Numbered from the stretch's first letter, positions 39,856 to 64,000 are shown. The stretch: DNA of 64,000 nt from an uncultured Gammaproteobacteria bacterium (GCA_964507055.1 CAZDOJ010000001.1:1170050-1234049), one strand, 5' to 3'. The notes: generated from the sequence alone by a model not told the origin. Numbers and translations are program-made.

Positions 39856-39959
39856 ACTTCACTACCAAGTGGAGTTTCTTCTTTTATAAGTCCCTTTTAG
39901 TATTTATTCCCTGAGCCGAGCCGAAGGGTACTAATCTTGTATTATGCCTTCGACGTTGC

Positions 39960-40601: not shown

Positions 40602-40623
40602 AGAAACAGTATACCAGGAGCAA

Positions 40624-43671: not shown

Positions 43672-43801
43672 GGGACAGAGGTAGTACTATTATAACAAAG
43701 CTATGTAAGATCTCGGCCTAGATTTAAATGAGAATTAGTACTATTTGATATAGATTGTGTGATTGAATTTAGATGGGAATATGAAATAATCAAATCAATT
43801 G

Positions 43802-46534: not shown

Positions 46535-46598
46535 CTCTACGAGTAAATTATTAGTTCTCTAATTTCTTTTAATAAAATTATTGTATAATTATTTATGT

Positions 46599-47579
46599 AT
46601 GAAATGGTGGGCGTATGGATTACTTATTATAACAATTCCTCTTTCTGTTCTTTATCTCTATCAACTCTATGATCAGCAGACATATGTAGGGAATCCACTT
46701 ACTCGGACAACAAAATGTCCTTATACATATATCAATCAACAACGGTGTGAGCCAGATACTGCTCCCAAAAAGAGAGAATATGTTGAATTACGAAATGACC
46801 TTATGGACTTAATTGAAGGTCAGAAGAATGAAGGTCGACTCACAGATGCTGCTGTCTATTTCCGTGATCTACAAAATGGACCGGTTCTTGGTATAAATTC
46901 TCAGGATTTTTTCATACCAGCAAGTTTATTGAAGCTTCCTTTGATGGTAACATACCTTAAGAAGGCAGAATCAGATCCTGACCTTCTACAAAAAAAGATT
47001 ACAATAACAAGTGATATGCAATCACTCGACCAAAATGTCGTCCCTCGTGATGGTGCTCAAGTTGGTAAAACCTATACTCGTGAAGAACTTCTTAACTTAC
47101 TTATTTCGCAATCAGATAACATTTCATGGAAAGCATTACTCACAGATCTACGTGCTAATTATTCTGAGGAAGATTTTGTCGGAACATTGAGTGATCTTGG
47201 TATCGTTGACCCTCGAAAGCAAGATGATCAGCAATATATTACGACACAAAATTATGCTTCTGTATATCGAATTCTTTACAACTCTTCCTACCTTAATATG
47301 GAAATGTCTGATAAAGCATTGGAGATTTTGTCCAAATCAGAATTTAAAGATGGAATTGTTGCTGGTGTCCCTGCCAATGTCCAAATAGCTCATAAGTTTG
47401 GTGAGCAAAAAAATGGTGAGGAGCAGCAACTTCATGATTGTGGTATTGTTTATTATCCTCAAAATCCATATATTATTTGTGTTATGACTAAGGGAGCAGA
47501 TATCTCAGACCTAGAATCAGTTATCCAAAAGGTTTCGAAAGACGTCTACACTGAAGTAGAAGTAAGGAATGCGGACTAA
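46599..47579 (+). CDS. Class A beta-lactamase-related serine hydrolase (PF13354-like), membrane-anchored, paralog 1
   Basis: TM anchor; SxxK FIPASLLKLP; SDN loop SQSDNISWKAL; KTG-equivalent HKFGEQ; C-terminal ...LHDCGIVYYPQNPYIICVMTKG... ATG 46599 is 9 nt after TGTATAAT; the listed ORF start 46581 is TTG. Confidence 0.7.
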   Translation: MKWWAYGLLIITIPLSVLYLYQLYDQQTYVGNPLTRTTKCPYTYINQQRCEPDTAPKKREYVELRNDLMDLIEGQKNEGRLTDAAVYFRDLQNGPVLGINSQDFFIPASLLKLPLMVTYLKKAESDPDLLQKKITITSDMQSLDQNVVPRDGAQVGKTYTREELLNLLISQSDNISWKALLTDLRANYSEEDFVGTLSDLGIVDPRKQDDQQYITTQNYASVYRILYNSSYLNMEMSDKALEILSKSEFKDGIVAGVPANVQIAHKFGEQKNGEEQQLHDCGIVYYPQNPYIICVMTKGADISDLESVIQKVSKDVYTEVEVRNAD

Positions 47580-47583
47580 GCTT

Positions 47584-48564
47584 ATGAAAATGTTCTCATT
47601 TATTATCTTAGCTCTGATTATTGGATTTGTAGGTGGGTATTTTATAAATAAATTATCTTCACAAAGTCTACCTATTCAAAGAGAAGACTGTGAATCTAAA
47701 TATGAGTTTATTAATAGTAGGATTGGTTGCCAACAGAATATTATAGATAAAAGAGAGTATACAGAATTTACTTCGGATTTGGAAACTTATATAGCTCAAG
47801 AAAAGGATAAAGGACATGTTTTCCACGTATCCGTTTACTTTCGTGATCTTATAGCTGGGCCAACATTTGGTATTAATTCAGGCGAAAAATTTGTACCTGC
47901 AAGTCTTTTGAAACTACCAATGATTATGACATATCTAAGTCTGTCTGAACAAACACCTGATATTCTAACTCAGAAAATAGTTTATAACAATATAAGATTA
48001 AATGCTGAACAATCGACAAGTAACATTCCTCAACTAGAAAAAAATAAGGAATATTCTATAGATGATTTGATTTCTAGAACAATTATATATTCTGACAATA
48101 AGTCCGAAGCTCTATTACGAAATTATCTGTCGACTACATATCCTAAAGATAATTTGTTAATTCAAACAATGACGGATCTTGGCTTAGTCGATCCAAGAGA
48201 TCCAATTGAAAATACTCTTACAGTCAAAGCATATGGAACTTTGTTCAGGCAATTATATAACAGTAGTTATCTTTCTCCAGCGATGTCTGAGAAGGCTTTA
48301 AAATTATTGGCGAAAAGTAAGTTCAAAAATGGAATATCTGGTGGGTTACCGAAAGATATAAAAGCAGCACACAAATTTGGTGAACGTGAGGAAGTAAATC
48401 AAAATGAAAAACAGCTTCATGATTGTGGAATTGTCTACTATCCTAATAATCCATACCTTCTTTGTGTAATGACACGTGGTGATGATATGCAAGAGCTCGA
48501 ATCTGTAATCAAAACGATATCAGAAAAAGTATATAAAGAAGTTGACTCCAGAAGAATACAATAA
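47584..48564 (+). CDS. Class A beta-lactamase-related serine hydrolase, membrane-anchored, paralog 2 (tandem duplicate)
   Basis: Same motifs (FVPASLLKLP, YSDNKSEALL, HKFGERE, LHDCGIVYYPNNPYLLCVMTRG). About 45% identity to the upstream paralog. Start could be 47569 (11-nt overlap), 47584 or 47590. Confidence 0.7.
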   Translation: MKMFSFIILALIIGFVGGYFINKLSSQSLPIQREDCESKYEFINSRIGCQQNIIDKREYTEFTSDLETYIAQEKDKGHVFHVSVYFRDLIAGPTFGINSGEKFVPASLLKLPMIMTYLSLSEQTPDILTQKIVYNNIRLNAEQSTSNIPQLEKNKEYSIDDLISRTIIYSDNKSEALLRNYLSTTYPKDNLLIQTMTDLGLVDPRDPIENTLTVKAYGTLFRQLYNSSYLSPAMSEKALKLLAKSKFKNGISGGLPKDIKAAHKFGEREEVNQNEKQLHDCGIVYYPNNPYLLCVMTRGDDMQELESVIKTISEKVYKEVDSRRIQ

Positions 48565-48682
48565 TTTCTGTACTTTGTGTTGCAAGTACCAGAGCTTTTT
48601 CGGTTAATCAGTACTCACCAATTTTCTTTTATTCTTGAACCGTAAAGAACCAAGCTCTTTACGAATGAAAGTCGTAGTGATT

Positions 48683-51600
48683 TTATTCTAATGGTGTTGC
48701 TGCGGATAATTCTTGTGGTTTTTCTGTACCGATCTGCATAATCATTTCAGTTGTTGAGAATGCTACTCCAACTGGAACCTCTTTGACCGCATCAACTGGT
48801 GCTACATCTGTTAGGGCTCCTGCAACTCCTAAGAAGTATTGCTTACCAGCTTCTAAGTTATTCAATACATTTGCTTTCCCACCGATGATGATGGTAACTT
48901 TCTCACCAGCCAATGCATCACCAGCAGCGATACCCACTACTGTTGTCTTTGCTTCATCTGTCGCATCTGCGATCATGACTTCTTCTGTATCTGAGATGTA
49001 AAGTGCATCTCCCTTTGTGATGTCTTCACCAGCTGTTGCTGATATAGTGATCGCTCCAGCGAGATCGATATTGCCGCCAACTTTGATGTTTTCTTTGGTT
49101 TCAACATTCTTTGCGACGATATTGCCTTTGGTAATCATTGTTCCGTTCTTGTCGATAACCATTGCTCCGTTGAAGATGTCGAGTAAGTTAGCAAGTGGTG
49201 ACTTCTGCAAGAACAAGATACCATCAGTTGGTTCTTCACCATTTTCGATTGGTGTACCGAAGACACTGATTTCATTTTCTGTGACAGAGAGTGTGCCGCC
49301 GACATTGATTCTGTCATCAACTGTGAGGACGCCAGCAACATTCGTATCTTCAAGTGTTGTCTTACCAGTTACCATTACATCACCTGAGATTGTTGTGTCA
49401 CCGAGGTATGATTTTCCAAATGACTTGAATGTATCCTGGATTGTTGCAGTGTATGCAGTGAATTCACCACTAACAGTTGCAGTTGAGAAGAATCCATGAT
49501 CAGTAGGGGATGCAGAATCCGATGCAATCAAGAGATCAGGTGATGTGAGATCTTCAGCTGATGGAGTAGGTTCTGCACTTTCACTTGCAGTTGGCGTAGC
49601 AGATGGTGAACCGACGCCACTTGTTGGAGTAGGGGTCGCTGATACATTGAGACTTGCGATGAGGTCATCAATTCTCTGACTCAAACTTGCAAGATCAGCT
49701 GAATTTGAAGCATTGTTGATTGCTTCAAGTTGTGCATTTAAGTTAGCGAGAACTGCATCTGTTGAAGCAACTCTGTCTCCAAGTGTTGCAGCATCGCTTG
49801 CTGCTTTTTCTGCGAGATCTTGTGCTGCTGCAAGTGCTGCTGCCTTTGCTGCTTCTTGTGACTCAAGGTTAGTGAGCCGTGTATCAAGTTGATTTGTCTT
49901 CTCTTCAAGACTGATTGCACTTGCTTGGAGTGATCCGATCGCAGTTGTCTTATTTGTGAGACTGTTGTTAACTGCGAGGAATGCATCAGCCAATGAACCG
50001 TTAACAACCTGACCGTCGATTTGCATATTTGATGGGAGGACAACTTCACCTGTTGTGATTTGTGTATCTTCATCAGTAAGGATAGCCAATTGGTTACTTG
50101 GATCAGCAAAGGTGACGTTAACAAATGTCATGACCTTGCCAACACCTGTGCCAGTGAAGTCTTCAAGTGCTTTACCGATAACTTGTCCTGGCTTGGTTGC
50201 TTTCATCGCGATACCAGCAACTGATGAAGAAGTGAGGTAATCGCCCTTTTTAATCTGTCCATTTTCTGTACTCACCTTGACTGGGACACGTCCAGCGAGA
50301 GCAACTGGAACTGCCTTGCCACCACTGATCATTTGTTCATTTTGTGATAGTCTAAAGCCTGGTTTTTCGCTGTAAACACCAATTATTGTAGTATCATATG
50401 TACCCTCTGATTTCTTGACGTTTTCAGCAACATCTTTGTCGATAGAGAGGATGTCACCAGCTTGCAGTGAATTGTCTTGTGTACCATAGTCTTCAGCCAA
50501 ATCATAGTTGCCGCCATTTGTTGTAAGTGTTCCGGACAATGTCGCGTTTCCAGTACTGTCGATAGAGAAGAGTTCTTGATTCGCAGCATTCTTCCACATG
50601 AATTTATTTGCATCCATACCTGTGTAGTCAGCAGCTAATTTACTAACCACATTACCTGTAATTCCTTCGATTGTTCCTGAGAGCAAGTCGAGGAGAGGAG
50701 TCCGAATTGTACCTGATGTTGTTAATGTTCCATTACCATCAATTGTTAATTCACTATTGTTACCGAATGCAGCTGCACTTGCAGTTAGATCTCCAAGGAT
50801 ATCGAAGTTCGCGTTGTGAGTCCAATCAGACAATCCATCATATGCTGCTTCCCCTGCATTTGGATTAGCATATCCAACATTCGCAAATGCCATAATCTTA
50901 CCCACAGACGGGTTCCAATTATTTGGATTAGAATGGTATTCCGCTAATTCTCCTGCATGGATTGAAGTTCTTTCGTTTTCTTCAAATAGAACATTTTCAG
51001 AAACTCGTACAGATCCATCATAATCTTCTAGAGCTTTACCGATAACTCGACCCCCTTTAGTTGCTTTCATAGCAACACCAGGAATTGAAGAACTGGTAAG
51101 GTAATCACCAATCTGAATAGGACCATTTTCTGTCGAGACTTTAAGCGGTACACGTCCTGCCAATCCTACCGGTTGTCTATTTGGAGATTTTACATTGTAA
51201 CCAATGATACCGTCAGCAATTGGGTTTGTTGAAACGATACCAATCATGTTGTCATCGTAAGTTCCATTAGATGCTGAAACCATGTAGTTTCCACCAGTTG
51301 ATGAGACGATGTCACCAGGTTCTACTGTACCATCAGTGTCATAGAATTCAGCTAAGTCAGCTTGGCCAGAAGTAGAACAGTCTCCAATTACAGCTTCGTT
51401 AAGTGCAACTCCGTTACCTGTACCGCCACCAGTTTGACATAGACGCTGTGTTTTAGCTCCTGATGCTGCATCAATTCTTACTTGTCCCTCAAAGTCATGT
51501 GTGCCAGTTCCGGTGACTTCAAGGTTTTCAGCAATTTCAATAACAGTATCAGTAGGGGAACTTATAACAGGTCTTGTCCCATCAAGATCAAAAGCAAGAT

Positions 51601-54600
51601 CAGTATTATCAGTTCCACCAGCACCTTGGAATTCAATACTACCGTTGGTGTTGTTATCAATTGTTTCACCATTCTGAAGTACAATATCGTTTGTAATATC
51701 TGTTGTTGCAATGTTAATACCATTGGTTATTGATCCTGCGAACCCGCCTGATACACCCAAGATTCTGATTGCACTTGTAACAGCTGCCGACTGGTTCTCA
51801 GAGTTTACGAGACAGAGGAGACATTCAACACCATCTGCATTTGTTGTACCAGTTGCAGCATTGACGATTTCAAATCCTCGAAGATTTGAATCACCATCAT
51901 TTTGTGTGAGTACCAATCGTGAACCATACAATGTGTCACTTGAAGAACCACCCTGTGCAGTGTAATCGAGTGAAAGACCGATATTGTTACCAGTAGATGA
52001 ATCAACATCAAGATCAAAGACACCAGTTGAAAGTGAATTGAGTGTACTGTCATTTGATGCAGCATCGATGAAGATTCTTTGTCCTGCTGCTTGGGTAAAT
52101 GTTGTTCCACCAGCTTCAGTTAGTGTTAAGAATGAAGTACCATTTCTGTTAACGATGAAGTCTCCAGTAGCTCCACTGACACCAAGGTTAACATTGATGT
52201 TGGAAGCACTTGATGGTTGGAGTGTGATATTACCAGTCCCACTACCAACGATTGTTGTACCAATTTCAGACTTCAACCAGAGATCACCATTGGATAGGGC
52301 AGAGAGTGATGATTGAGATCCACCGCCAGTTGATCCGAAGAGTATCTGACCATTTGTTGTGCCATTCAATCCAATTGTCAGTATGGATGAAGTAGCTGAT
52401 GCATCTGCAAATGAGAAGAGGGTATTTGTCCCGTCTGTTAATCCGAGTGTTCCACCATTTGCGAATGAGATCAATGGGTTACTGAAATTAAAGTTGATGT
52501 TACCAGTTGATTGAACTTGGAATAAGTCACCATTTCCAACAGTCAATGGAGCAGCTGGTGTCGCATCTCCGAATCCTACGTTTCCTTGGAAGTATGCAGT
52601 GCCATTTGAGTTCAACTTAACGCCGTATGAAGTATTAAGTGTTGGAACTGCTGCACCAGTCAATGCTGTACCAGTATCAATGATTGAGTTGGTTGTTGTT
52701 GTTAAGTATCCAGTTTGGTTATTTGATGATGTTCCTCGATATACTCGGTATGATGTCGCACCTGCAACTGCTGTCCAGTTGATTGTAACTCTCTGGCCAA
52801 GAGTAACTGCTTGTGCATTTTCAGGACTTGTAGTTGTTTCACCACCAGCTGCATCAAGTGCTGTAACTTTGTAGTAATAGGTGCCCGTTGCGAGTGTTCC
52901 ACCACCAGCTGCAGTACCCATAGATAATGCTCCAGGAGCTGACATGTTAAGACCCATGTTATTCCCAGCTCCAAGAACGAATTTCTCTTGTGGAGTTGCT
53001 GTACCAAATCCTACATTTCCACCAGCAACGATCAAGCCGTAGTTCGTAGCACTTGCTCCACTTGCATCGAAGTATCCTGCGATGTTTGTCGCACTATTTG
53101 TTGTTGTATTAACGATCGATCGGACACCATATGATGTGTGGTTAGCATTTACATTGGTTCCAGATCGTGCGATATCAAGCATGTATGTTGTACCACTTGC
53201 TCCACCATTGGTTGCTGAATTTGTGATAGCAACTGCTGGAGTAGAAACATTTGTTGTACTGATTTGAAGAACATCACTTGCTGTTGCATTGGAGATAACA
53301 CCAGTTGAGAAGTTCTTGTTGAAGTAACCGAATTGGACCGTACCAGAGTTAGCTGTTGATGTGAATCCACCTGCACAAGCCAAGTTACCATTACTGTTGG
53401 TAACTGTACAACCTGTTGATGCTGAAGTTCCAGCGATGTTAACATCTCCAGTTTGTGTATTACTTTGGAGGTTAAGTGCTCCTGAACCATTTGCATTTAC
53501 ACTGACTGCTGCGTTTGTTGTGGTAGCAGCGATCACTGGTGCTGATCCGGAAAGATTAATTGTATTTGTACCCATTGTGAGGACGCCACTACCAAATGTT
53601 ACTGGTCGGTTCGTTGTGGTATTGATTCCAAGTGTTGCTGATCCACCAGTTGCATCGATGATTGGAGCAGTACCAGTTAGGTTGATTGCGTTGGATGCGA
53701 GTGCTGTTGTCGCACCTGATACTGTCAAACCACCAGCTACTGTTGTCGTACTTCCTGATGCACCGATTGCGAGTGATGAAGCACCGCCACCGATATTCAA
53801 AGTTGATGTCTGAACTGTGTTAAACAAGTTAACAGTTGATCCTGATGTTGCTGAGATATCGCCTCCGTTAACGATCAAATCACCAGTCATTGTTGTCGCA
53901 TTTGTTCCGAGGAATGAATATGTTGGGTTCGTTGAGCCGTTACCAAATGAGATATTTTCTGAGCTGTTTGTGGTGTTGATGTTAATGTAATTATTTGCAC
54001 CTTCTTGAACATCAAGAGCATCAGTATTGTTATCAACTAAGTTTGCAGTAATATCACTTCCTGCACCATTTGCTGTAAGTGAAACTGTTGTTCCGGAAAG
54101 AGCAATTGCATCGCCGCCATCACCGATGTTTGCTGCACCATTTGCAGTGAGTGTACCAGCAACTGTTAATCCATTATTAACTGTTGTTGTTCCAGTAGCA
54201 GCTCCGAGTGAAACAGTTGTTGCAGCACCACCGATGTTCAATGTTGTTGCGACTGTGTTGAAGACATTTGCAGTTGATTTCGCAGCGATCAATGTTGATT
54301 GCGTAGAACCATCAATTGTCAAACCATTTGATGCTGTAACTGCACCGGTCAATGTAGAGATGCCATCAACTGTTAATGTACCATTTGTTGAGATGTTTCC
54401 AGTGTTTGCGATTGTAGCACCAGTTGATCCGTAACCGCCGCCGACATTTACTGTATCGAATCCTGCGGTTGCATTTGTTGCAGCGATTGATGTTGCGTTA
54501 GGGAAGTTAATTGTTGTTCCTCGGATGTTGCCTGTTGCATTGGTTGCACCCAAAGTGTATGTCGTTGCAGCTCCACCAATATTGAGTGTTGTTGCTCCAG

Positions 54601-57600
54601 TATTGAAGAGGGAAGCTGTGCCAGCAGTTGTTGTAAGATCTCCACCATTCAATGCTGCATCTCCAGCACTAGTGATATCTCCACTTGCACCAGCAACTGA
54701 GAAGTTAGTACCTGATATATCATTTGCTCCGAATGAAAGTGCTGTTCCGATATCTGCATTACTAACATCAAGAGCTGTTGTGACATTGCCACTTGGAGTT
54801 CCAGCAATTCTCAATGCGATTGGTAATGCTCGATTAGTGTCTTTGTTGTCTATCAAAACGAGTTGTGTAGGATCTGCAGTTCCAGCACCATCAGCTCGTG
54901 AGATTTCGACGCCACCTGTTGAACCTGTTGCTGTTGTAACAGTGAATTTAGAATCAGCTGTTGTGTCAGCAAGTGTGAATGCGATGTCTCTGTTGTTTGT
55001 TGTAGTGATTGCATTGCCATTGTCATATGCACTTTGGAGACTTTGTGATGCACCGTCACATTTAACAACTTGATTTGAGCCATTGACACAAACACCAGTT
55101 CCAGCAGCAGTTGTCAAACCATTCAATGTTATGAATGAATCAGCGTCTGATGTAATTGTTACGCCATTTGTTCCATTTGGTGAGAAGTTAGATTGACCAT
55201 TTGCTGTAAATGTCTGACCTGATGCAACTGTCAAACCACTGTTCACAGTTGTTGTTCCACCATTTGCTCCGAGTGCGATTGTTGTAGCAGCACCACCGAT
55301 GTTGAGTGTAGTAGCTCCGGAATTAACCAAGTTGAATGTACCAGCAGTTGTTGTAAGATCTCCACCATTAACAGCAACGTCACCAGTTGCAGTAACATTA
55401 CCAGTTAATGTTGAAGCACCATCAACTGTTAATGTACCGTTTGCTTGGATATTTCCAGCGTTACTGACTGAAACGCCAGTTGACCCGTAACCACCGCCGA
55501 TTGAGAGGGAATCAGCATTGAATGCAGCGGTCAACGCAGAGATTGTTGTTGCATTGTTGAAGTTGATTGTTGTTCCTCGGAGGTTACCAGTCGCATTAGT
55601 TGCACCGATTGTGTATGCGGTTGCAGCACCACCCATGTTAAGTGTTAATGCATTTGTATTGAATACTGTTGCTGTTCCTGTACCTGATGTAGTGATGTCA
55701 CTTCCATTGACAGCTAAGTCACCTGATGTAGTGATGTTACCAGTTGATCCAACGATCCCGAAGTTGGTTGCAGATACGTTACTTGCTCCAAGTGCGATAC
55801 CTGTTGTGATACTTGCATCACTGACGTCGATACCTGTTGTTACGCCGCCGCCACCTGAGGATGTTACTTTCAAACCAGCTGGAATTGCTCTATTTGTGTC
55901 AGCATTGTCGATCAAGATAAGTTGTGCAGGATCGTTTGTACCAGCTCCATTTGCTCTTGAGAATGTAGAGAATCCAGTTGATCCATCAGCTGTTGTTACT
56001 GCAAAGTTAGAATCAGTTGCAGTATCAGCAAGTGTGAATCCGATATTTCGAGCATCAGTTGTTGTTATGGTATTTCCATTGTTGTATGCAGTTTGCAGGT
56101 TAAGAGATGCTGCATTACATGTACCAACATTGTTTGATCCATCGAGACAGAGTGTAGTACCAGCAACTGACTGAAGTCCTGTTAATACCAAAGTTGAATC
56201 AGCATCTGTTGCAAATGTAATGTCGTTTGTACTATTTGGTGAGAATGAAACTGCACCAGCTGTTGTGAGTGTACTGTTGTTACCGACAGTCAAAGCATTT
56301 CGTACAGTTGTTGTACCAGTTGTTGCACCGAGAGCAACTGTTGTTGCAGCACCACCAATGTTAAGTGTGGTAGCGGTTGTATTGAATAAGTTACCTGTTG
56401 TCTTTGATGAAACCAAGTCTGATGTTGATGCACCATTAATTGTTACACCATTCGATGCTGTAACTGCACCAGTCAATGTTGATGCTCCATCAACTGTGAG
56501 TGCACCATTTGCTTGAACATCTCCAGCACTACTTACTGAAACGCCAGTTGATCCGTAACCGCCACCGATAGCTGTTGAACTGATGTTAAGAGCAGCTGAA
56601 TTTGCTGTGATAGTTGTCGCGTTAGGGAAGTTGATTGTTGTACCTCGGATATTCTGTGTTGCAGTTGTTGCACCTGTTGTCAGTGTTGTTGCTGCACTTC
56701 CCATTGTTACTGTTGTTGCATTTGTATCGAAGATTGAACCGGTTGTTGCAGTTGTTGAAAGTGTTCCACCATTGACTGCGACATTGCCAGCTGTTGTGAC
56801 ATTACCGTTTGCACCAGAGATAGAGAAGTTACTTGCAGATACATCGTTTGCTCCGAGTGAAAGTGCAGTGACGATACTTGCGTCTGAAAGATCAAGTGCA
56901 GTTGTAATTCCGCCACCACCTGTTGATGTAATAGCCAATCCAGTTGGAAGTGGTCGGTTAGCATCTGCATTATCGATAAGAACTAATTGATTTGGATCAG
57001 ATGTTCCAGCACCATTTGCTCGTGAGAAGACTGTTCCACCAGTTGATCCATCAGCTGTTGTGATAGTGAAGTTAGAATCAGTAGCAGTGTCAGCAAGTGT
57101 GAATCCAATGTTTCTATTGTTTGTTGATGTGATGGTATTTCCATTATCATATGCAGCTTGCAAACTTGCGTTTGCTGTCAAATCACATTTAACAACTTGG
57201 TTGGAACCATTTACACAAAGTGTTGGTTGTGCACCTGATGCTGTTGTCAAACCACTGACAGTCAAGAATGAATCAGAATCAGTTGCGATTGTGACACCAT
57301 TTGTACTGTTAGGTGAGAATGAAACTGCACCACTTGTTGTCAAAGCACTGTTGTTTGCAACAGTCAAAGCATTTCGGATCGTTGTTGTACCAGTTGTTGC
57401 ACCGAGTGAAACAGTTGTAGCAGCGTTACCGATGTTAAGTGTCGTAGCACCAGTATTGAAGATATTTCCAGTTGCAAATGTTGTTGTAATATCTCCACCA
57501 TTTACTGCGATATCACCTGATGATGTGATGTTTCCAGTTAAGTTAGAAGTACCATCAACTGTTAAGTTACCATTTGCTTGGATGGTGCCAGCATTACTGA

Positions 57601-60600
57601 CTGAAACTCCTGTTGAACCATAACCGCCACCGATTGTAGCAGCATCGATTGTTACTGTCGCACCACTTGCATTCAATGCTGTTGCATTTGGAAGTGCGAT
57701 TGTTTGGTTATTGATTGTTGCTGTACCACTTGCACCGCCGATGTTCAATGTTGTTGCTGCTCCAGCGAAGTTCACTGTTGTTGCAGTTGCATCAACTAAG
57801 TTGAATGTTGTTTCATCAGTTGAGATTGTTCCACCATTTGCAGCGATTGATCCGTTAGCTGAAAGATTACCATTTGAACCAGTGAGTGAGAAGTTGGTTG
57901 CAGTGATGTCATTTGCACCAAGTGAAAGTGCATTACCGATTTCAGCATCTGAGAGATCAAGTGCTGTAGTGATACCACCAGCTGCTGCTTGTACTTTAAT
58001 ACCTGCAGCAACTGCTCTGTTTGTATCCAAGTTATCAACCAAGATCAATTGGTTTGGATCAGCTGTTCCACTACCATTTGCTCGAGTGAACGATGAGAAT
58101 CCAGTTGATCCATCAGCTGTAGTGATAGTGAAGTTAGCATCAGTTGTTGTATCAGCGAGTGTGAATCCGATATCTCGAGCATCTGTTGTAGCGATTGTGT
58201 TGCCAGCATTGTATGCAGCTTGCAAACTGAATGACGCCGCTGAACATGTACCGACATTACTTGATCCATCAACACAAAGTGTTGTTCCAGTAACTGATTG
58301 CAAACCAGTTAATACCAAAGTTGAGTCAGCATCAGTGTTGATTGTAATATCACTTGTGCTTGCAGGTGTAAGTGAAACTGCACCAGTTGTAGTGAGTGAA
58401 CTGTTGTTAGCAATTGAAAGATTATTGTTCACAGTTGTTGTGCCAGTTGCTGCACCGAGTGAAAGAGTTGTAGCAGCACCACCGACATTCAATGTTGTTG
58501 CAGTTGTATTAAAGAGGGAAGCTGTTGTTTGATTTGTAGTAACGTCGCCGCCGTTAACAGCAACGTCTGCTGCAGCTGTTACATTTCCAGTCAAAGTTGA
58601 AACACCATCAACTGTTAATGTACCGTTTGCTTGGATATTACCAGCGTTAGAGATAGTAGCACCAGTTGAACCGTAACCGCCACCGATTGCTACTGAATCA
58701 AATGTCGCTGCTGCACCAGCTGCTGCAAATGTTGTAGCGTTAGGGAAGTTGATTGTTGTACCTCGGATATTTCCTGTTGCTGCTGTTCCACCAATTGTGT
58801 ATGTTGTCGCAGCACCACCGATATTCAATGTCGTAGCAGTTGTGTTAAAGAGGGAAGCAGTTGTCGCTGATGTCGTAACATCGCCACCATTCACAGCAAC
58901 ATCACCAGTTGTTGTGATGTTTCCAGTGCTACCTGCGATAGAGAAGTTGCTTGCAGTGACATCATTTGCTCCGAGTGAAAGTGCGTTACCGATTGTTGCA
59001 TCTGAAAGATCAAGTGCAGTTGTTACTCCAGCTCCACCAGCGGAACCGATCTTCAATCCAACTGGGAGGATTCGGTCTGCATCCAAGTTGTCGATCAAGA
59101 CTAATTGTGTTGGATCATTTGTACCAGCACCGTTTGCTCGTGCGAATACTGAGTAACTGGTTGAGTCATCAGCAGTTGTTACTGAGAAGTTCGAATCAGT
59201 TGCAGTATTTGCAAGTGTGAAGTCGATATTTCTGTTGTTTGTTGTTGTGATAGTGTTGCCATTGGTATATGCAGCTTGCAAACCTTGTGACGCAGAGTTA
59301 CATGTCCCAACATTATTGCTACCATCGATACAAAGTGCAGTACCTGTAAGTGATTGCAAACCAGTCAAGATCAATGTTGAATCGGCATCAGTTGCGAAAG
59401 TAATGTCATTTGTACTGTTTGGTGAGAATGAAACAGCACCCGCACTTGTTAATGTTCTGTTATTTCCGATTGTTAAATTGTTGTTCACAGTTGTTGTACC
59501 GGTTGTTGCACCAAGAGAGAGGGTAGTAGCAGCGCCGCCAACATTCAATGTAGTGACACCAGAGTTAAGAAGATTAAATGTTGTTGCACTTGATGTTAGG
59601 TCCCCACCATTGATAGCGACATCAGCTGTCGCAGTAACATTACCAGTCAAAGCAGAAGTACCATCAATTGTTAAGTTACCATTCGCTTGGATATCTCCAG
59701 CATTTGAAAGTGTTGTTCCAGTCGTTCCATAACCGCCACCGATAGCAATAGTATCAAATGTCGCAGCAGCTTGTGGAGCAGTGAAGGATGTAGCGTTAGC
59801 GAAGTTGATAGTCGCATTTCGGATGTTTGCTACACCAGTTGTTGCACCTAAGTTAACAGTTGTTGCAGCGCTACCGATATTCAATGTTGTTGCATTGGTA
59901 TTGAACAAATTACCGGTTGTTTGTGATGTAGCAATAGTACCTGAATTAGCATTGATATTTCCTGAGAATGTACTTGCACCAGTTCCTAAGAATGAATATG
60001 TTGGGTTAGTGGTTACATTACCGAATGAAAGATTCTCAGAACCATTTGTTGTGTTCAAGTTAATGTAGTTATTTGAACCTTCCTGGATATCAAGAGCGTT
60101 TGCATTGTTATCAACTACAGTTGCAGTTAAGTTATTGTTAAGTGTTGTTGTCCCAGTTCCTGCACCGAGAGCAACAGTTGTAGCAACTCCACCGATATTT
60201 AGTGTTGTAGCATTGGTATTAAGAAGATTGAATGTTGTTTGTGATGTTGTAAGATCTCCGCCATTTACAGCAACATCACTTGCAGCGGTAACATTTCCAG
60301 TTAATATTGATGTGCTATCAACTGTCAAAGTTCCATTGGTTGAAACATTCCCGGCATTACTTACTGTCAAACCAGTAGAGCCATAACCTCCGCCGACGTT
60401 TAATGTATCGATATTTGCAGTTGCTCCTGCTGCGTTAATTGCAGTTGCATTTGGAAGAGAGAGGGTAGCGTTGTTGATCGTTGCTGTTCCACTATTTGCA
60501 CCGATGGTAACATTGGTAGCAGTGCCGCCAGCATTCAATGTTGTGACTCCAGAGTTAAGAAGATTGAATGTTGTTGCAGAAGATGTAAGATCTCCACCAT

Positions 60601-63600
60601 TGATAGCGACATCAGCTGTCGCAGTAACATTACCAGTCAAAGCAGAAGTACCATCAATTGTTAAGTTACCATTTGCTTGAACATTTCCTGTACTGCCAAG
60701 TGTTACACCAGTTGAACCGTATCCACCGCCAGCATTTACGACATCGAATCCTGCAGTTGCTGAATTTCCGTCGATTGTTGTTGCGTTCGGGAAGTTGATT
60801 GTCGTACCTCGGATATTTCCAGTCGCATTGGTTGCACCCAAAGTGTATGTCGTAGCCGCACCACCAACATTCAATGTTGTAACGCCGGTGTTAAGAAGAT
60901 TGAATGTACCAGCACTTGATGTTAAGTCTCCACCATTTACAGCTACATCAGCTGAAGTTGTGATGTTGCCAGTTGCGGTGATTGTTCCTGAAGTGTTGAT
61001 GTTGCCGTTAGAACCAGTGATAGAGAAGTTGGTAGCGGTAACATCATTCGCACCAAGTGAGAGAGCATTGACTATCTCAGCATCTGAAAGATCAAGAGCA
61101 TTTGTAATTCCACCAGCTGCAGCTTGGATCTTAATACCAGCTGGTAATGCTTCGTTTGTATCCAAGTTCTCGATCAATTGTAATTGTGCTGGTGGAGTAG
61201 TATTTGTACCGTTAGCCAAACCGAAGTATGAATAGCCAGTTGAACCAGCAGCAGTTGTCACTGTGAAGTTGGAATCAGTTGAAGTATTAGCTAAGTTGAA
61301 TGCGATGTCTCGTGCATCTGATGTCGTGATTGTGTTACCACCAGCATATGCATTTTGGAGACTGAGTGTTGCATTTGCACACTGAACAACATTGTTTCCA
61401 CCGTCGAGACAGAGTGGGGTACCAGTTGTTGTACCCAAACCATTCAAGATGATTGTTGAATCTGTATCAGTTGTAAATGTGATGTCATTGGTACTGTCTG
61501 GAGCAAATGTAGAAGCACCATTTGCGTCGAATGATTGACCAGTTGCGACTGTTGCACCGCCATTGAATGTTGCGAGTCCTGTTGCAGTTGTTACTCCATC
61601 AATAAGAAGGTCATTGTTGATATTTGTTGTGCCAGTTGCTGCACCCAAGTTAAGTGCAGTTGCTGCACCACCGATATTGATTGTAGTTGCTGTTGTATTG
61701 AGTAAGTTAAATGTACTTGCACCAGTTGTTAAGTCACCACCATTGATAGCGACATCACCAGTTGCTGTTACGTTACCAGTCAATGCGGAAGTGCCATCGA
61801 TAGTCACATTACCGTTTGCTTGGATGTTGCCAGCGTTAGAGATTGAAACGCCAGTTGAGCCGTAACCGCCGCCAACATTTAATGTATCAAATCCAGCAGT
61901 TGCTGAAGTTCCATCGATAGTTGTTGCATTGTTAAAGTTGATTGTCGTACCTCGGATATTTCCAGTCGCATTGGTTGCACCCAAAGTGTATGTCGTAGCC
62001 GCACCGCCAACATTCAATGTCGTAGCATTGCTGTTGAACAAGTTAGCTGTTGTTTGGTTGGTAGCGAGTGTACCTGAATTAGCATTTATGTTCCCAGTTG
62101 CAGTGATAGTTCCACTTGTTGTGATGTTGCCGTTAGAACCAGTGATCGAGAAGTTGGTGGCAGCTACATCATTAGCACCAAGTGAGAGTGCATTAACGAT
62201 TTCAGCATCTGAAAGATCCAATGCATTAGTGATACCACCAGCAGCTGATTGAACTTTTATGCCAGCAGCAACTGCTCGATCAGTGTCTTGATTGTCAACC
62301 AAGATCAGTTGTGCTGGGTCTGAAGTGCCTGCACCATTTGCTCGAGCGAAGATACTTGTACCAGTTGAACCATCAGCTGTTGTTACTGTGAAGTTAGAAT
62401 CAGTTGTAGTGTTCGTCAATGTGAAGGCGATGTCTTTTGCGTCTGTTGTGTCGATTGTATTTCCACCAACATATGCATTTTGGAGACTGAGTGTTGCATT
62501 TGCACATTGGACAACATTGTTACTGCCATCGAGACAAAGTGAAGTGCCAGCTGCTGTACCAAGCCCAGTCAAGACAAATGTTGAGTCAGCATCAGTTGCA
62601 AAAGTAATGTCATTTGTACCATTTGGTGTAAATGTACTTGTACCATTTGCAGTCAATGTTTGACCTGATGGGATAGTTGCACCACCATTGAATGTTGCTA
62701 CGCCAGTTGCTGTCAACGCATTATTAACTGTAGTTGTTCCAGATGATGCACCAAGTGAAAGGGTAGTAGCAGCATTGCCAATATTCAATGTTGTAACTCC
62801 AGAGTTAAGAAGATTGAATGTTGTTGCAGAAGATGTAAGATCTCCACCGTTGACTGCAACGTCGGCAGCAGCAGTTACATTACCAGTCAATGTTGAGATG
62901 CCATCAACTGTCAAAGTTCCATTTGCTTGGATATTTCCAGAGTTACTGATCGTTGCACCAGTAGAACCATAACCACCGCCGATAGCAACTGAGTCAAAAG
63001 TAGCAGCAGCTTGTGGAGCAGTGAATGATGTAGCGTTAGCGAAGTTGATAGTCGCATTTCGGATGTTAGCAATACCAGTTGTTGCACCCAAGTTAACAGT
63101 AGTGGCAGCACTACCAACATTGAGTGTCGTAGCAGTTGTATTGAATAAGTTACCAGTAGTTTGTGATGTAGCAATTGTTCCAGAGTTAGCATTGATGTTC
63201 CCACTGAATGTACTTGCACCGGTTCCGAGGAATGAATATGTCGGATTTGTTGTCGTGTTACCAAATGTGATGTTTTCTGCACCGTCAGTTGTGTTTACAT
63301 TGATGTAGTTGTTACTGCCTTGCTGAATATCAAGAGCATTTGCATTGTTGTCGACCATATTAACAGTCAAGTTATTGTGTAATGTTGTTGTTCCGGTTCC
63401 GGCACCAAGTTCAATTGTTGTAGCATCGCCACCGATATTTAATGTTGTAGCATTGGTATCAAGTAAGTTAAATGTAGAAGCAGATGTCGTCAAGTCACCA
63501 CCATTGATAGCGACATCTCCAGTTGCAGTGACATCACCAGTAAGTGTTGAAGTTCCATCAATTGTGAGTGAACCATTCGCTGAGATATCACCAGCACTAC

Positions 63601-64000
63601 TGATAGTAGTACCAGTTGATCCATAGCCATTACCAACATTCAAAGCGTCGATGTTTGCAGTTGCTCCTGCTGCATTGATTGCAGTAGCATTTGGAAGTGA
63701 TAGGGTAGCGTTATTGATTGTTGTTGTGCCTGTACTCGCACCAAGAACGAGTGAAGTAGCAGCACCGCCTAGATTCACTGTCGTAGCATTCGCATTAAAT
63801 ACATTTGCAGTACCAGCAGTAGTTGTAAGTGATCCACCGTTCACTGCTACGTTTCCAGCAGTAGTAATGTTTCCATTAGAACCAGTGATAGAGAAGTTTG
63901 TTGCAGCAACATCATTAGCACCGAGAGATAATGCATTGACGATCTCTGCATCGGAAAGATCAAGAGCGTTAGTGATACCACCAGCAGCAGCTTGAATCTT
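48683..64000 (-). CDS. Giant (>5,100 aa) repeat-rich surface/fibre-like protein, partial (N-terminus beyond window end)
   Basis: Continuous minus-strand ORF from the window edge to a stop at 48683, with no in-frame stop in the last 156 nt. About 3,600 aa of Thr/Ala/Gly/Asn-rich nested tandem repeats; motifs GGGYGSTG, NGGDLT, TTLN[IV]GGAATT, C.DGSNNV..C. These are followed by an FN3-like module (...INWTAVAGATSYRVYR...), two ~120-aa related modules (...ALAGRVP[LV]KVSTENG.I..GDYLTSSS..G[VI]AMKATK.G.VIGKALED...), a coiled coil (~49700-49900), a P/T/S linker and a C-terminal ~300-aa domain. Confidence 0.85.
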   Translation of the reverse strand, partial: KIQAAAGGITNALDLSDAEIVNALSLGANDVAATNFSITGSNGNITTAGNVAVNGGSLTTTAGTANVFNANATTVNLGGAATSLVLGASTGTTTINNATLSLPNATAINAAGATANIDALNVGNGYGSTGTTISSAGDISANGSLTIDGTSTLTGDVTATGDVAINGGDLTTSASTFNLLDTNATTLNIGGDATTIELGAGTGTTTLHNNLTVNMVDNNANALDIQQGSNNYINVNTTDGAENITFGNTTTNPTYSFLGTGASTFSGNINANSGTIATSQTTGNLFNTTATTLNVGSAATTVNLGATTGIANIRNATINFANATSFTAPQAAATFDSVAIGGGYGSTGATISNSGNIQANGTLTVDGISTLTGNVTAAADVAVNGGDLTSSATTFNLLNSGVTTLNIGNAATTLSLGASSGTTTVNNALTATGVATFNGGATIPSGQTLTANGTSTFTPNGTNDITFATDADSTFVLTGLGTAAGTSLCLDGSNNVVQCANATLSLQNAYVGGNTIDTTDAKDIAFTLTNTTTDSNFTVTTADGSTGTSIFARANGAGTSDPAQLILVDNQDTDRAVAAGIKVQSAAGGITNALDLSDAEIVNALSLGANDVAATNFSITGSNGNITTSGTITATGNINANSGTLATNQTTANLFNSNATTLNVGGAATTYTLGATNATGNIRGTTINFNNATTIDGTSATAGFDTLNVGGGYGSTGVSISNAGNIQANGNVTIDGTSALTGNVTATGDVAINGGDLTTGASTFNLLNTTATTINIGGAATALNLGAATGTTNINNDLLIDGVTTATGLATFNGGATVATGQSFDANGASTFAPDSTNDITFTTDTDSTIILNGLGTTTGTPLCLDGGNNVVQCANATLSLQNAYAGGNTITTSDARDIAFNLANTSTDSNFTVTTAAGSTGYSYFGLANGTNTTPPAQLQLIENLDTNEALPAGIKIQAAAGGITNALDLSDAEIVNALSLGANDVTATNFSITGSNGNINTSGTITATGNITTSADVAVNGGDLTSSAGTFNLLNTGVTTLNVGGAATTYTLGATNATGNIRGTTINFPNATTIDGNSATAGFDVVNAGGGYGSTGVTLGSTGNVQANGNLTIDGTSALTGNVTATADVAINGGDLTSSATTFNLLNSGVTTLNAGGTATNVTIGANSGTATINNATLSLPNATAINAAGATANIDTLNVGGGYGSTGLTVSNAGNVSTNGTLTVDSTSILTGNVTAASDVAVNGGDLTTSQTTFNLLNTNATTLNIGGVATTVALGAGTGTTTLNNNLTATVVDNNANALDIQEGSNNYINLNTTNGSENLSFGNVTTNPTYSFLGTGASTFSGNINANSGTIATSQTTGNLFNTNATTLNIGSAATTVNLGATTGVANIRNATINFANATSFTAPQAAATFDTIAIGGGYGTTGTTLSNAGDIQANGNLTIDGTSALTGNVTATADVAINGGDLTSSATTFNLLNSGVTTLNVGGAATTLSLGATTGTTTVNNNLTIGNNRTLTSAGAVSFSPNSTNDITFATDADSTLILTGLQSLTGTALCIDGSNNVGTCNSASQGLQAAYTNGNTITTTNNRNIDFTLANTATDSNFSVTTADDSTSYSVFARANGAGTNDPTQLVLIDNLDADRILPVGLKIGSAGGAGVTTALDLSDATIGNALSLGANDVTASNFSIAGSTGNITTTGDVAVNGGDVTTSATTASLFNTTATTLNIGGAATTYTIGGTAATGNIRGTTINFPNATTFAAAGAAATFDSVAIGGGYGSTGATISNAGNIQANGTLTVDGVSTLTGNVTAAADVAVNGGDVTTNQTTASLFNTTATTLNVGGAATTLSLGAATGTTTVNNNLSIANNSSLTTTGAVSLTPASTSDITINTDADSTLVLTGLQSVTGTTLCVDGSSNVGTCSAASFSLQAAYNAGNTIATTDARDIGFTLADTTTDANFTITTADGSTGFSSFTRANGSGTADPNQLILVDNLDTNRAVAAGIKVQAAAGGITTALDLSDAEIGNALSLGANDITATNFSLTGSNGNLSANGSIAANGGTISTDETTFNLVDATATTVNFAGAATTLNIGGASGTATINNQTIALPNATALNASGATVTIDAATIGGGYGSTGVSVSNAGTIQANGNLTVDGTSNLTGNITSSGDIAVNGGDITTTFATGNIFNTGATTLNIGNAATTVSLGATTGTTTIRNALTVANNSALTTSGAVSFSPNSTNGVTIATDSDSFLTVSGLTTASGAQPTLCVNGSNQVVKCDLTANASLQAAYDNGNTITSTNNRNIGFTLADTATDSNFTITTADGSTGGTVFSRANGAGTSDPNQLVLIDNADANRPLPTGLAITSTGGGGITTALDLSDASIVTALSLGANDVSASNFSISGANGNVTTAGNVAVNGGTLSTTATTGSIFDTNATTVTMGSAATTLTTGATTATQNIRGTTINFPNATTITANSAALNISSTAIGGGYGSTGVSVSSAGDVQANGALTVDGASTLTGAVTASNGVTINGASTSDLVSSKTTGNLFNTTATTLNIGGAATTVALGATTGTTTVRNALTVGNNSTLTTAGAVSFSPNSTNDITFATDADSTLVLTGLQSVAGTTLCLDGSNNVGTCNAASLNLQTAYNNGNTITTTDARNIGFTLADTATDSNFAVTTADGSTGFSTFSRANGAGTNDPAQLILIDNADTNRAIPAGLKVTSSGGGGVTTGIDVSDASITTGIALGASNVSATNFGIVGSTGNITTSGDLAVNGSDITTSGTGTATVFNTNALTLNMGGAATAYTIGATNATGNLRGTTINFNNATTISALTAAFNADSLSIGGGYGSTGVSVSNAGNIQANGTLTVDGASTLTGNVTATGDVAVNGGDLTTTAGTFNLVNSGATTLNIGGAATTIALGANGGTTTVNSGLTVASGQTFTANGQSNFSPNGTNGVTITSDADSFITLNGLTTAAGTGVCVNGSNQVVKCDGASQSLQSAYDNGNAITTTNNRDIAFTLADTTADSKFTVTTATGSTGGVEISRADGAGTADPTQLVLIDNKDTNRALPIALRIAGTPSGNVTTALDVSNADIGTALSFGANDISGTNFSVAGASGDITSAGDAALNGGDLTTTAGTASLFNTGATTLNIGGAATTYTLGATNATGNIRGTTINFPNATSIAATNATAGFDTVNVGGGYGSTGATIANTGNISTNGTLTVDGISTLTGAVTASNGLTIDGSTQSTLIAAKSTANVFNTVATTLNIGGAATTVSLGAATGTTTVNNGLTVAGTLTANGAANIGDGGDAIALSGTTVSLTANGAGSDITANLVDNNTDALDVQEGANNYININTTNSSENISFGNGSTNPTYSFLGTNATTMTGDLIVNGGDISATSGSTVNLFNTVQTSTLNIGGGASSLAIGASGSTTTVAGGLTVSGATTALASNAINLTGTAPIIDATGGSATLGINTTTNRPVTFGSGVLTMGTNTINLSGSAPVIAATTTNAAVSVNANGSGALNLQSNTQTGDVNIAGTSASTGCTVTNSNGNLACAGGFTSTANSGTVQFGYFNKNFSTGVISNATASDVLQISTTNVSTPAVAITNSATNGGASGTTYMLDIARSGTNVNANHTSYGVRSIVNTTTNSATNIAGYFDASGASATNYGLIVAGGNVGFGTATPQEKFVLGAGNNMGLNMSAPGALSMGTAAGGGTLATGTYYYKVTALDAAGGETTTSPENAQAVTLGQRVTINWTAVAGATSYRVYRGTSSNNQTGYLTTTTNSIIDTGTALTGAAVPTLNTSYGVKLNSNGTAYFQGNVGFGDATPAAPLTVGNGDLFQVQSTGNINFNFSNPLISFANGGTLGLTDGTNTLFSFADASATSSILTIGLNGTTNGQILFGSTGGGSQSSLSALSNGDLWLKSEIGTTIVGSGTGNITLQPSSASNINVNLGVSGATGDFIVNRNGTSFLTLTEAGGTTFTQAAGQRIFIDAASNDSTLNSLSTGVFDLDVDSSTGNNIGLSLDYTAQGGSSSDTLYGSRLVLTQNDGDSNLRGFEIVNAATGTTNADGVECLLCLVNSENQSAAVTSAIRILGVSGGFAGSITNGINIATTDITNDIVLQNGETIDNNTNGSIEFQGAGGTDNTDLAFDLDGTRPVISSPTDTVIEIAENLEVTGTGTHDFEGQVRIDAASGAKTQRLCQTGGGTGNGVALNEAVIGDCSTSGQADLAEFYDTDGTVEPGDIVSSTGGNYMVSASNGTYDDNMIGIVSTNPIADGIIGYNVKSPNRQPVGLAGRVPLKVSTENGPIQIGDYLTSSSIPGVAMKATKGGRVIGKALEDYDGSVRVSENVLFEENERTSIHAGELAEYHSNPNNWNPSVGKIMAFANVGYANPNAGEAAYDGLSDWTHNANFDILGDLTASAAAFGNNSELTIDGNGTLTTSGTIRTPLLDLLSGTIEGITGNVVSKLAADYTGMDANKFMWKNAANQELFSIDSTGNATLSGTLTTNGGNYDLAEDYGTQDNSLQAGDILSIDKDVAENVKKSEGTYDTTIIGVYSEKPGFRLSQNEQMISGGKAVPVALAGRVPVKVSTENGQIKKGDYLTSSSVAGIAMKATKPGQVIGKALEDFTGTGVGKVMTFVNVTFADPSNQLAILTDEDTQITTGEVVLPSNMQIDGQVVNGSLADAFLAVNNSLTNKTTAIGSLQASAISLEEKTNQLDTRLTNLESQEAAKAAALAAAQDLAEKAASDAATLGDRVASTDAVLANLNAQLEAINNASNSADLASLSQRIDDLIASLNVSATPTPTSGVGSPSATPTASESAEPTPSAEDLTSPDLLIASDSASPTDHGFFSTATVSGEFTAYTATIQDTFKSFGKSYLGDTTISGDVMVTGKTTLEDTNVAGVLTVDDRINVGGTLSVTENEISVFGTPIENGEEPTDGILFLQKSPLANLLDIFNGAMVIDKNGTMITKGNIVAKNVETKENIKVGGNIDLAGAITISATAGEDITKGDALYISDTEEVMIADATDEAKTTVVGIAAGDALAGEKVTIIIGGKANVLNNLEAGKQYFLGVAGALTDVAPVDAVKEVPVGVAFSTTEMIMQIGTEKPQELSAATPLE
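52750..64000 (-). repeat. Nested coding tandem repeats inside the giant gene: basic unit ~1.3 kb (~430 aa), plus near-identical higher-order copies 3,240 bp apart
   Basis: Antisense ORF peptides at 59781/63021 and at 60105/63345 are ~80-85% identical with an exactly 3,240-bp offset. The GGGYGSTG motif recurs about every 430 aa. Confidence 0.8.

Follow-up and report, generated by a model that had tools for sequence, protein, structure and literature searches.

The analyzed sequence, referred to below as the window, is a stretch of 64,000 nt from a single assembly (GCA_964507055.1, CAZDOJ010000001.1:1170050-1234049) and contains no N. Outside the gene that is the subject of this analysis, the window has the appearance of a bacterial chromosome of the ordinary kind (about 38% G+C), with genes for DnaG, a P-type ATPase, a histidine kinase and two beta-lactamase-like proteins as well as one tRNA. 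The minus strand carries a giant ORF that has its stop codon at position 48683 and is open up to nucleotide 64000, i.e. the end of the window, such that only the 3' part of the gene (at least 5,105 codons) is covered, the 5' part and the N-terminus being located beyond the window. Residues are numbered throughout so that aa i corresponds to nt 64000-3(i-1).

48683..64000, minus strand: giant ORF, 3' part (no upstream stop; dN/dS of 0.14 between orthologs over 3,480 codons)
48686..53530, minus strand: C-terminal region without repeats, aa 3491-5105 (from the sequence read-out)

The low dN/dS value across these codons indicates that the giant ORF is a real coding gene. The C-terminal region contains a domain of about 150 aa in duplicate, together with a coiled coil and a linker rich in Thr, Pro and Ser; its Pfam matches are weak and of the coiled-coil type only, and its homologs (best identity 42%) come mainly from MAGs labeled as Patescibacteria or CPR, with a few labeled otherwise. 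The nearest relative of the repeat region outside the 'uncultured Gammaproteobacteria' MAGs is found in a Candidatus Levyibacteriota MAG, and the host of the giant gene is probably an ultra-small bacterium of the Patescibacteria type, similar to Levybacteria. 'Gammaproteobacteria' is the label on several of the MAGs that carry the gene. The gene has a chromosomal location and conserved synteny among bacteria. Among more distant homologs, the N-terminus is of the MerR-type HTH or of the integrase SAM-like kind; three more distant relatives start with the MerR-type HTH domain, followed in two of the three by a hydrophobic stretch.

The repeat array spans aa 1 to approximately 3490 and is composed of subunits of about 112 aa, as determined by iterated profile search (jackhmmer; 23 subunit matches). 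The regular unit of about 352 aa (1,056 nt) comprises a subunit A, a subunit A' and a B module that contains a conserved pair of cysteines and the ALDLSDA motif. Positions 54137-59905 are occupied by about five and a half of these units, with DNA identity of 68-69%. In a blastn self-comparison, the same level of identity was found at a period of 1,056-1,065 nt, the offset of 1,059 nt giving 68.4% over 4.8 kb, and the successive Cys modules in the window are spaced by 375, 693, 352, 353, 356 and 353 aa. Near the end of the window, the pattern becomes irregular, with additional A subunits and a variant subunit, Ac, that carries an insert of about 55 aa (VDNNANALDIQ.GSNNYIN.NTT..EN..FGN..TNPTYSFLG). 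This insert module (family D11) is present at aa 228 and aa 1308, and in a diverged form at aa 3334; the third copy is 40-44% identical to the other two at the amino acid level and 82% identical to its ortholog in OZ246394.1. Tandem Repeats Finder, with its period limit of 500, reported nothing for the array, in which identity is too low for this method. A longer period, of 3,240 nt, is superimposed over the shorter ones of 336 and about 1,056 nt.

53868..54049, minus strand: insert module, third and more diverged copy, at the end of the array (family D11, alignment)
54137..59905, minus strand: array of regular units, about 1,056 nt each, with the composition A + A' + Cys-pair B (blastn, marker spacings, jackhmmer)
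59432..60573, minus strand: block copy 2, about aa 1143-1523 (73.7% nucleotide identity to copy 1)
59787..59827, minus strand: 41-nt exact run common to both block copies, partner 63027-63067 (exact-repeat comparison)
59946..60127, minus strand: insert module of block copy 2 (family D11, alignment)
60574..62671, minus strand: stretch between the block copies (background identity at 3,240 nt, or 1,080 aa)
62672..63813, minus strand: block copy 1, about aa 64-443 (single run at 3,240 nt; reciprocal best subunit matches)
63186..63367, minus strand: insert module of block copy 1 (family D11, motif positions, alignment)

In the minus-strand reading frame, a clear diagonal is displaced by exactly 3,240 nt (1,080 aa). 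It consists of a single run of 1,142 nt (59432-60573 vs. 62672-63813), along which DNA identity is 0.74-0.75, far above chance (0.31 ± 0.007 over all offsets); outside the block, identity at this offset stays at background (0.2-0.4) throughout the rest of the array. The two copies in the window (the 5' part of the gene lying beyond it) share 73.7% of the nucleotides over the 1,142 nt, with identities of 80, 92 and 52% at codon positions 1, 2 and 3, respectively; over aa 53-430 vs. 1133-1510, identity is 74.9% for nucleotides and 80% for amino acids. The dS between the copies is 1.10 and the dN/dS is 0.13. At the 3,240-nt offset, exact matches extend to 41 nt at most, with another run of 23 nt, and no k-mer of 55 nt or longer is common to both copies.

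Block copy 1 comprises a subunit A, the insert-bearing Ac, a second A and half of an A' (its first half). The stretch that separates the two copies contains the Cys module B1, a short unit made up of A, A' and B2, and an additional A subunit. Reciprocal best matches between subunits at the 1,080-aa offset are confined to the block (u53-u1133, 68% of amino acids; u165-u1245, 83%; u272-u1352, 86%), and the modules that follow pair otherwise (B1-B2, 75%; B1-B3, 62%; B2-B4, 60%), the best partner of u641 being u1021 (77%). Thus, the array does not repeat as a whole multimer, the diagonal covering 1,142 of the 3,240 nt and B1 having its best match in B2, and neither are the copies far more alike than the monomers (74-75% for the blocks vs. 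68-69% for the units, with some ordinary subunit pairs reaching 72-74% DNA identity). What the 3,240-nt offset reflects is the duplication of a block some 380 aa long, which is neither a super-repeat of 3.2 kb nor near-identical.

These results modify the original prediction in several respects. The off-diagonal line that it implied at about 3.2 kb is there, in the form of the one 1,142-nt run, and the offset of the two peptide pairs described as 3,240 bp apart and 80-85% identical is real, but their coordinates were 1-2 nt out of frame. When read in frame, the first pair (aa 232-326 vs. 1312-1406; nt 63023-63307 vs. 59783-60067) is 90.5% identical and the second (aa 126-218 vs. 1206-1298) 74.2% identical, compared with a median of about 11% for peptide pairs at other offsets; the second pair lacks offset specificity, having other partners at up to 70-71%. 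The term 'near-identical' does not apply to copies with 73.7% DNA identity, dS of about 1.1 and no exact run above 41 nt. Likewise, a super-repeat of 3,240 bp or about 1,080 aa is not borne out, given that only 1,142 nt lie on the diagonal and the flanking Cys modules pair differently, and the array has no period of about 430 aa, the proposed basic repeat; its regular unit measures about 352 aa (1,056 nt) and is assembled from the subunits of about 112 aa.

Comparison with other genomes bears on the stability of the array. A genome scan identified an ortholog in OZ246394.1, a chromosome-level MAG of 1.61 Mb, where two loci merge into 36,545 nt with a single open frame of 12,181 codons that is open at both ends; in two further relatives, the frame stays open for 12,972 codons or more and for 13,498 codons or more. 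The ortholog is colinear with window positions 53591-64000 (82% nucleotide identity), residue i of the window corresponding to residue i+8418 of the ortholog. In an ungapped alignment over 3,480 codons, identity is 81.5% for nucleotides and 87.4% for amino acids, and dS is 0.68. In the global alignment, there are zero gaps across aa 1-3451, as against ten small indels in the next 300, non-repeat residues, i.e. 0 indels in 10.35 kb of repeats vs. 10 in the next 0.9 kb. The layout of modules is likewise conserved: B modules in OZ246394.1 are spaced by 694, 351, 355, 355 and 353 aa, matching the window, and, among the irregularly spaced insert modules of the 36.5-kb frame (aa 2250, 3561, 8646, 9726 and 11752), the spacings of 1,080 and 2,026 aa are identical to those in the window. 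Because the array remains gapless at a dS of 0.68, the number of units has been unchanged over a long time. The repeat number is stable, and there is no sign of phase-variable length here.

The positional ortholog is the best match within the ortholog gene for 59 of the 68 windows of 300 nt. In a neighbor-joining distance tree of the insert-bearing blocks, win_230 groups with OZ_8648 and win_1310 with OZ_9728, so that each copy is paired with its positional ortholog and the duplication therefore predates the split between the lineages. Nucleotide identity in the block is about the same between paralogs (74.9%) and between orthologs (76.3% and 74.9%), which suggests either that the duplication is only slightly older than the split or that conversion is under-credited.

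The best match in a metagenome scan for conspecific strains was 56%. A Logan contig recovered via the adjacent beta-lactamase-like gene is 100% identical to the window and ends 765 nt into the giant gene. An identical architecture in the more distant L007 (about 65% amino acid identity) was considered and rejected despite similar spacings, its best matches being scattered over many diagonals; across long times, units may turn over. P0001 (1,778 aa) was rejected as a short form of the protein, because it derives from a frameshifted gene of which it represents the 3' portion; the contig that carries it stops within the repeats.

The part of the gene in the window (15.3 kb) contains no repeated k-mer of 99 nt or longer, and only 4 distinct 77-mers are repeated, the longest exact repeat being 80 nt; therefore, collapse from reads of at least 100 nt is not expected. 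The same layout is moreover found in OZ246394.1, the genome of another organism that was assembled separately. In the relatives, exact repeats reach 433 nt. In the SPAdes MAG CAYTCO01, the giant gene is split over at least 4 contigs, with exact internal repeats of 55-92 nt forming the contig ends, and in L004-L006, L010, L011, L013 and L023 contigs end inside the array. In this family, assembly fails through fragmentation at short exact tracts, not through collapse of long, diverged repeats. The breakpoints in assemblies of the gene family are short exact conversion tracts of about 55-430 nt rather than the long diverged repeats. When annotation or assembly quality is checked, the region that had been flagged needs no handling as a collapse or phase-variation risk.

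Recombination between units has left a mosaic of patches 60-110 nt in length that are 98-100% identical between paralogous units in the window and 53-82% identical to the ortholog. The patches include three exact repeats that are candidate conversion tracts.

59604..59683, minus strand: 80-nt exact repeat, candidate conversion tract, partner 60594-60673 (offset 990)
60546..60598, minus strand: 53-nt exact repeat, candidate conversion tract, partner 62796-62848 (offset 2,250)
60792..60862, minus strand: 71-nt exact repeat, candidate conversion tract, partner 61935-62005 (offset 1,143)

For the 80-nt repeat, paralog identity is 1.0 vs. 0.53-0.80 for the ortholog. Variants of the subunit-start motif, about 25 aa in length, are located in different units in the window and in OZ246394.1: SSATTFNLLNSGVTTLN is found in units 383, 1133 and 1463 in the window and in unit 1021 in the ortholog. 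Judging by these patterns, recombination between units takes the form of non-reciprocal gene conversion over short tracts (about 50-110 nt) that preserves length. The duplicated block itself shows such exchange, concerted site patterns being in excess over cross patterns (45 vs. 22). Thus, of the anticipated recombination between repeats, the component that stands is short conversion tracts, both blocks included, and not crossing-over that changes length; unequal recombination and phase-variable fiber length are contradicted by an ortholog at 81.5% nucleotide identity and a dS of 0.68 with zero gaps over the 3,451-aa array. In the comparison of repeat number with related genomes that the original prediction called for, OZ246394.1 has the same layout of units, without a gap in the array. 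The warning of assembly risk was apt inasmuch as the relatives are fragmented at exact internal repeats in short-read assemblies, but collapse of the pair in the window is implausible. The reading of the locus as a gene for a giant, fiber-like repeat protein survives.

Taken together, we consider it likely, with a probability of roughly 0.8, that the locus represents an old internal duplication of about 1.14 kb in a giant fiber-like gene that evolves under purifying selection, with a stable number of units and conversion over short tracts. The duplicated block would have consisted of three and a half shaft subunits of about 112 aa, one of them with the insert of about 55 aa, and would have arisen before the split between the lineages. 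Purifying selection on the protein would then be the main force keeping the copies alike, with silent sites nearly randomized, and the number and order of units would be stably inherited, while conversion tracts, about 50-110 nt long in the window and reaching at most a few hundred nt in the relatives, would move variants between units at constant length.

It appears rather unlikely that the likeness of the blocks is maintained mainly by ongoing gene conversion (concerted evolution) instead of by purifying selection on an old duplicate. Among the four-sequence site patterns in the block, 45 are concerted compared to 22 cross patterns (p = 0.003), with clusters of concerted sites at aa 71-100, 311-340 and 371-430; the 41-nt exact run at 59787-59827, which together with the 23-nt run at the same offset would fit such a process, falls in a bin with an excess of these sites, and in some windows of 300 nt identity is higher between the block copies (0.81-0.84) than between a copy and its ortholog (0.67-0.80). 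However, orthology patterns form the majority (78) and dominate several bins (16:3, 11:1, 12:0 and 13:0), the tree joins the orthologs, and the dS of 1.10 between the copies is as high as or higher than that between the orthologs of the two blocks (1.02 and 0.87).

Recent, near-identical, tandem higher-order repeats of 3.2 kb, prone to slippage and to collapse in assembly and conferring a phase-variable fiber length, are already largely refuted and now seem very improbable. Such repeats would account for the existence of the 3,240-nt diagonal, for the exact repeats of up to 433 nt in relatives and for the splitting of the gene in related MAGs at exact repeats of 55-92 nt, but the copies are only 75% identical in DNA, with a dS of 1.1, no exact run above 41 nt and no 55-mer in common, the repeated part amounts to just 1.14 of the 3.24 kb, Tandem Repeats Finder is silent on the array, and zero indels separate the 3,451-aa array from an ortholog at a dS of 0.68. 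An assembly artifact, whereby one block was misplaced or duplicated by the assembler, is scarcely credible even for a family in which repeat-rich genes are hard to assemble and contigs end inside the array, considering that one base in four differs between the copies, which accordingly do not come from the same reads, that the assembly of another organism places both copies at the same positions without an indel, and that the window contains no N.

Within the preferred reading of an old duplication under purifying selection, selection may act on the length of the shaft. A more specific version, which we regard as doubtful, is that the fiber shaft is length-locked, the number of units being under strong selection and conversion redistributing a motif of about 25 aa over positions that stay fixed. 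This possibility is compatible with the data because of the contrast of 0 vs. 10 indels and the occurrence of the same motif variants at different unit positions. If so, the length of the shaft could, for example, determine how far a tiny episymbiotic cell sits from its host, and the shuffling of motifs could provide a built-in variation of the fiber surface without a change in length. That a giant repeat protein contains an internal duplication that has diverged is in itself an ordinary finding; its evolutionary interest is modest and lies in the indel-free array and the shuffling of motifs. The case is one of a very long array in which the number of units is frozen across substantial divergence and conversion tracts still move sequence, and it is of some interest for the evolution of giant fiber proteins in ultra-small bacteria, without constituting a new kind of system.

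As for the nature of the protein, sequence searches of the 5,105 aa against Pfam, NCBIfam and PDB yielded no domain or structure match, and a literature search found no description of the family. Thr, Ala, Gly and Asn together make up 59% of the array, Cys occurs solely as i,i+10 pairs, and the part of the protein in the window contains no hydrophobic segment. Each subunit opens with a motif of about 44 aa (VNGGDLTT..TFNL.N..ATTLNIGG.ATT..LG) that is common to small 'tail fiber domain-containing' proteins with the tail-fiber chaperone domain Peptidase_S74 or the Mtd_N domain (47-73% identity). PHROG 4527, 'short tail fiber protein', matches eight stretches (E = 1e-34), repeatedly and only at profile positions of about 2842-2946 out of 3730, which suggests that the match represents the common shaft motif and not the full architecture; matches to tail-fiber genes of cyanophages extend over about 50 aa. 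AlphaFold monomer models of the regular unit and of the insert-bearing block (pLDDT 73-77) show almost no secondary structure and were for that reason set aside as unusable for fold assignment; a Foldseek search of both models against PDB gave 0 matches. Considering composition and motif, the protein is probably an extracellular and possibly oligomeric fiber shaft.

The similarity to the shafts of phage tail fibers (PHROG 4527 and the Peptidase_S74 and Mtd_N proteins) is limited to the motif of about 44 aa. Unlike phage tail-fiber genes, the gene in the window is chromosomal and far longer, and neither the Peptidase_S74 chaperone nor Mtd_N was detected by the Pfam scan of the 5,105 aa of the window part, the N-terminus lying beyond the window.

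Giant repeat adhesins include proteins of the RTX/Bap type, such as the Marinomonas ice-binding adhesin, SiiE and LapA, as well as Ebh. With these, the protein shares a very long ORF, the bulk of which is a repeat array and which accounts for a considerable fraction of a small genome, and, to judge from the paired Cys and the low-complexity Thr/Ala/Gly/Asn composition, a probable extracellular location; the combination of a very long ORF, purifying selection and a mostly repetitive sequence is in keeping with a giant repeat-array surface protein. It differs from the giant adhesins in that the repeats in the window are not Ig-like and have no Pfam domain, and in that the number of units is conserved between species. 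In several giant adhesins, moreover, the DNA repeats are nearly identical, in contrast to the 68-69% DNA identity between the units in the window. The Giant1-5 proteins of Apilactobacillus kunkeei are reported to be giant repeat-array surface proteins (PMC12863079).

The giant genes of Omnitrophota and other phyla are reported to encode Archaeovorin and Dockerin types with tubes of antiparallel beta-helix; a term search of that report found CPR bacteria only as background on predatory bacteria, and fragmentation of assemblies is noted there to hide giant genes (West-Roberts et al., bioRxiv 10.1101/2023.11.21.568195). The gene analyzed here resembles them in the presence of giant ORFs (at least 12,000-13,500 aa in the relatives) in uncultivated bacteria, hidden by fragmentation, and is set apart, going by this description, as a different type of protein.

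Finally, in common with higher-order and contingency repeats, the array has a longer period superimposed over shorter ones. It does not have the near-identical, slippable tandem repeats of a contingency locus, given a longest exact repeat of 80 nt and a dS of 1.1 between the blocks, and it differs from both kinds of repeats in that the longer period is represented by two partial copies which are no more alike than the basic units and in that it shows no variation in length.

We found no indels relative to the orthologue (OZ246394.1) in the 3,451-aa repeat array of the giant gene, compared with ten small indels in the first 300 residues past the array (ORF aa 3452-3763, about nt 52712-53647). 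Thus, the constraint on length is stronger in the repeats than in the unique sequence. The non-repeat C-terminal region holds a repetition of its own, an internal duplication of a ~150-aa domain (window 50160-50296 vs. 51024-51160, minus strand) with the motif DLAE.Y...GD.V...GRVP.KVSTENG.I..GDYLTSS...G.AMKA, for which a Pfam scan of the window ORF gave no family match; a coiled coil and a Thr/Pro/Ser linker come after it.

In relatives, contigs of short-read MAGs stop within the repeat array (L004, L005, L006 and L013 of CAYTCO01; L010 and L011; L023). In CAYTCO01, a SPAdes MAG, the sequences at the contig ends recur exactly, over 55-92 nt, in the interior of sister contigs. This pattern is the hallmark of a de Bruijn graph that breaks where a repeat is equal to or longer than the k-mer length. 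In L023 (JGI metagenome 3300005138), a frameshift breaks the syntenic gene inside a B module, the module with the Cys pair (nt ~1660-1810), and therefore the called protein of 1,778 aa (P0001) is only the 3' piece of this gene; the frameshift could be a sequencing error or the mark of a pseudogene. A contig from another public assembly, Logan SRR14271336_31922 (L032), is 100% identical to window 39836-49447; its last 765 nt fall in the giant gene, all within the 3' non-repeat part.

The giant gene is adjoined by a tandem pair of genes, which overlap by 11 nt and are partially similar to each other; this gene order, with two beta-lactamase-like genes beside the giant gene, is kept in L023.

Genes adjoining the giant gene
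46581-47579, plus strand, beta-lactamase-like (Beta-lactamase2) gene, first of the pair
47569-48564, plus strand, beta-lactamase-like (Beta-lactamase2) gene, second of the pair

Open reading frames of 150-273 aa lie opposite the giant gene. Rather than genes, they are most likely a side effect of its coding strand, which is repetitive and biased in composition.

ORFs antisense to the giant gene
49017-49499, plus strand
53361-53813, plus strand
54525-55073, plus strand
55518-56174, plus strand
57060-57623, plus strand
57711-58532, plus strand
59217-59732, plus strand

Among distant homologous giant ORFs, a MerR-type HTH domain was observed at the start of L015, L014 and L019, and L020 and L022 have N-termini that resemble each other; of this pair, the domain scan covers L020 only.

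Starts of distant homologues
L015, from nt ~7170, MerR-type HTH and hydrophobic stretch
L014, from nt ~5440, MerR-type HTH and hydrophobic stretch
L019, from nt ~8030, MerR-type HTH
L020, from nt ~7270, phage-integrase SAM-like domains
L022, from nt ~7690, N-terminus resembling that of L020

A DNA-binding-type domain opening a giant fibre-like protein is odd; it is known from these distant homologues, the N-terminus of the window gene being off-window.

MAG records with the orthologous or a related gene are titled 'uncultured Gammaproteobacteria' (L001/L003 of OZ246394.1, L004-L008, L011-L013 and L020). These titles look like mislabels because the other relatives and the C-terminal homologues come mostly from Patescibacteria or Levyibacteriota.

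The frame of the orthologue, merged from loci L001 and L003, comprises 12,181 codons and is open at both ends, and in two further relatives (L009+L002 and L008+L012) the open frame reaches at least 12,972 codons in one and at least 13,498 in the other. Judged from these sequences, the giant gene is far larger than its part in the window (48683-64000, minus strand); a gene of ~40 kb or more would occupy roughly 3% of a 1.3-1.6 Mb genome.
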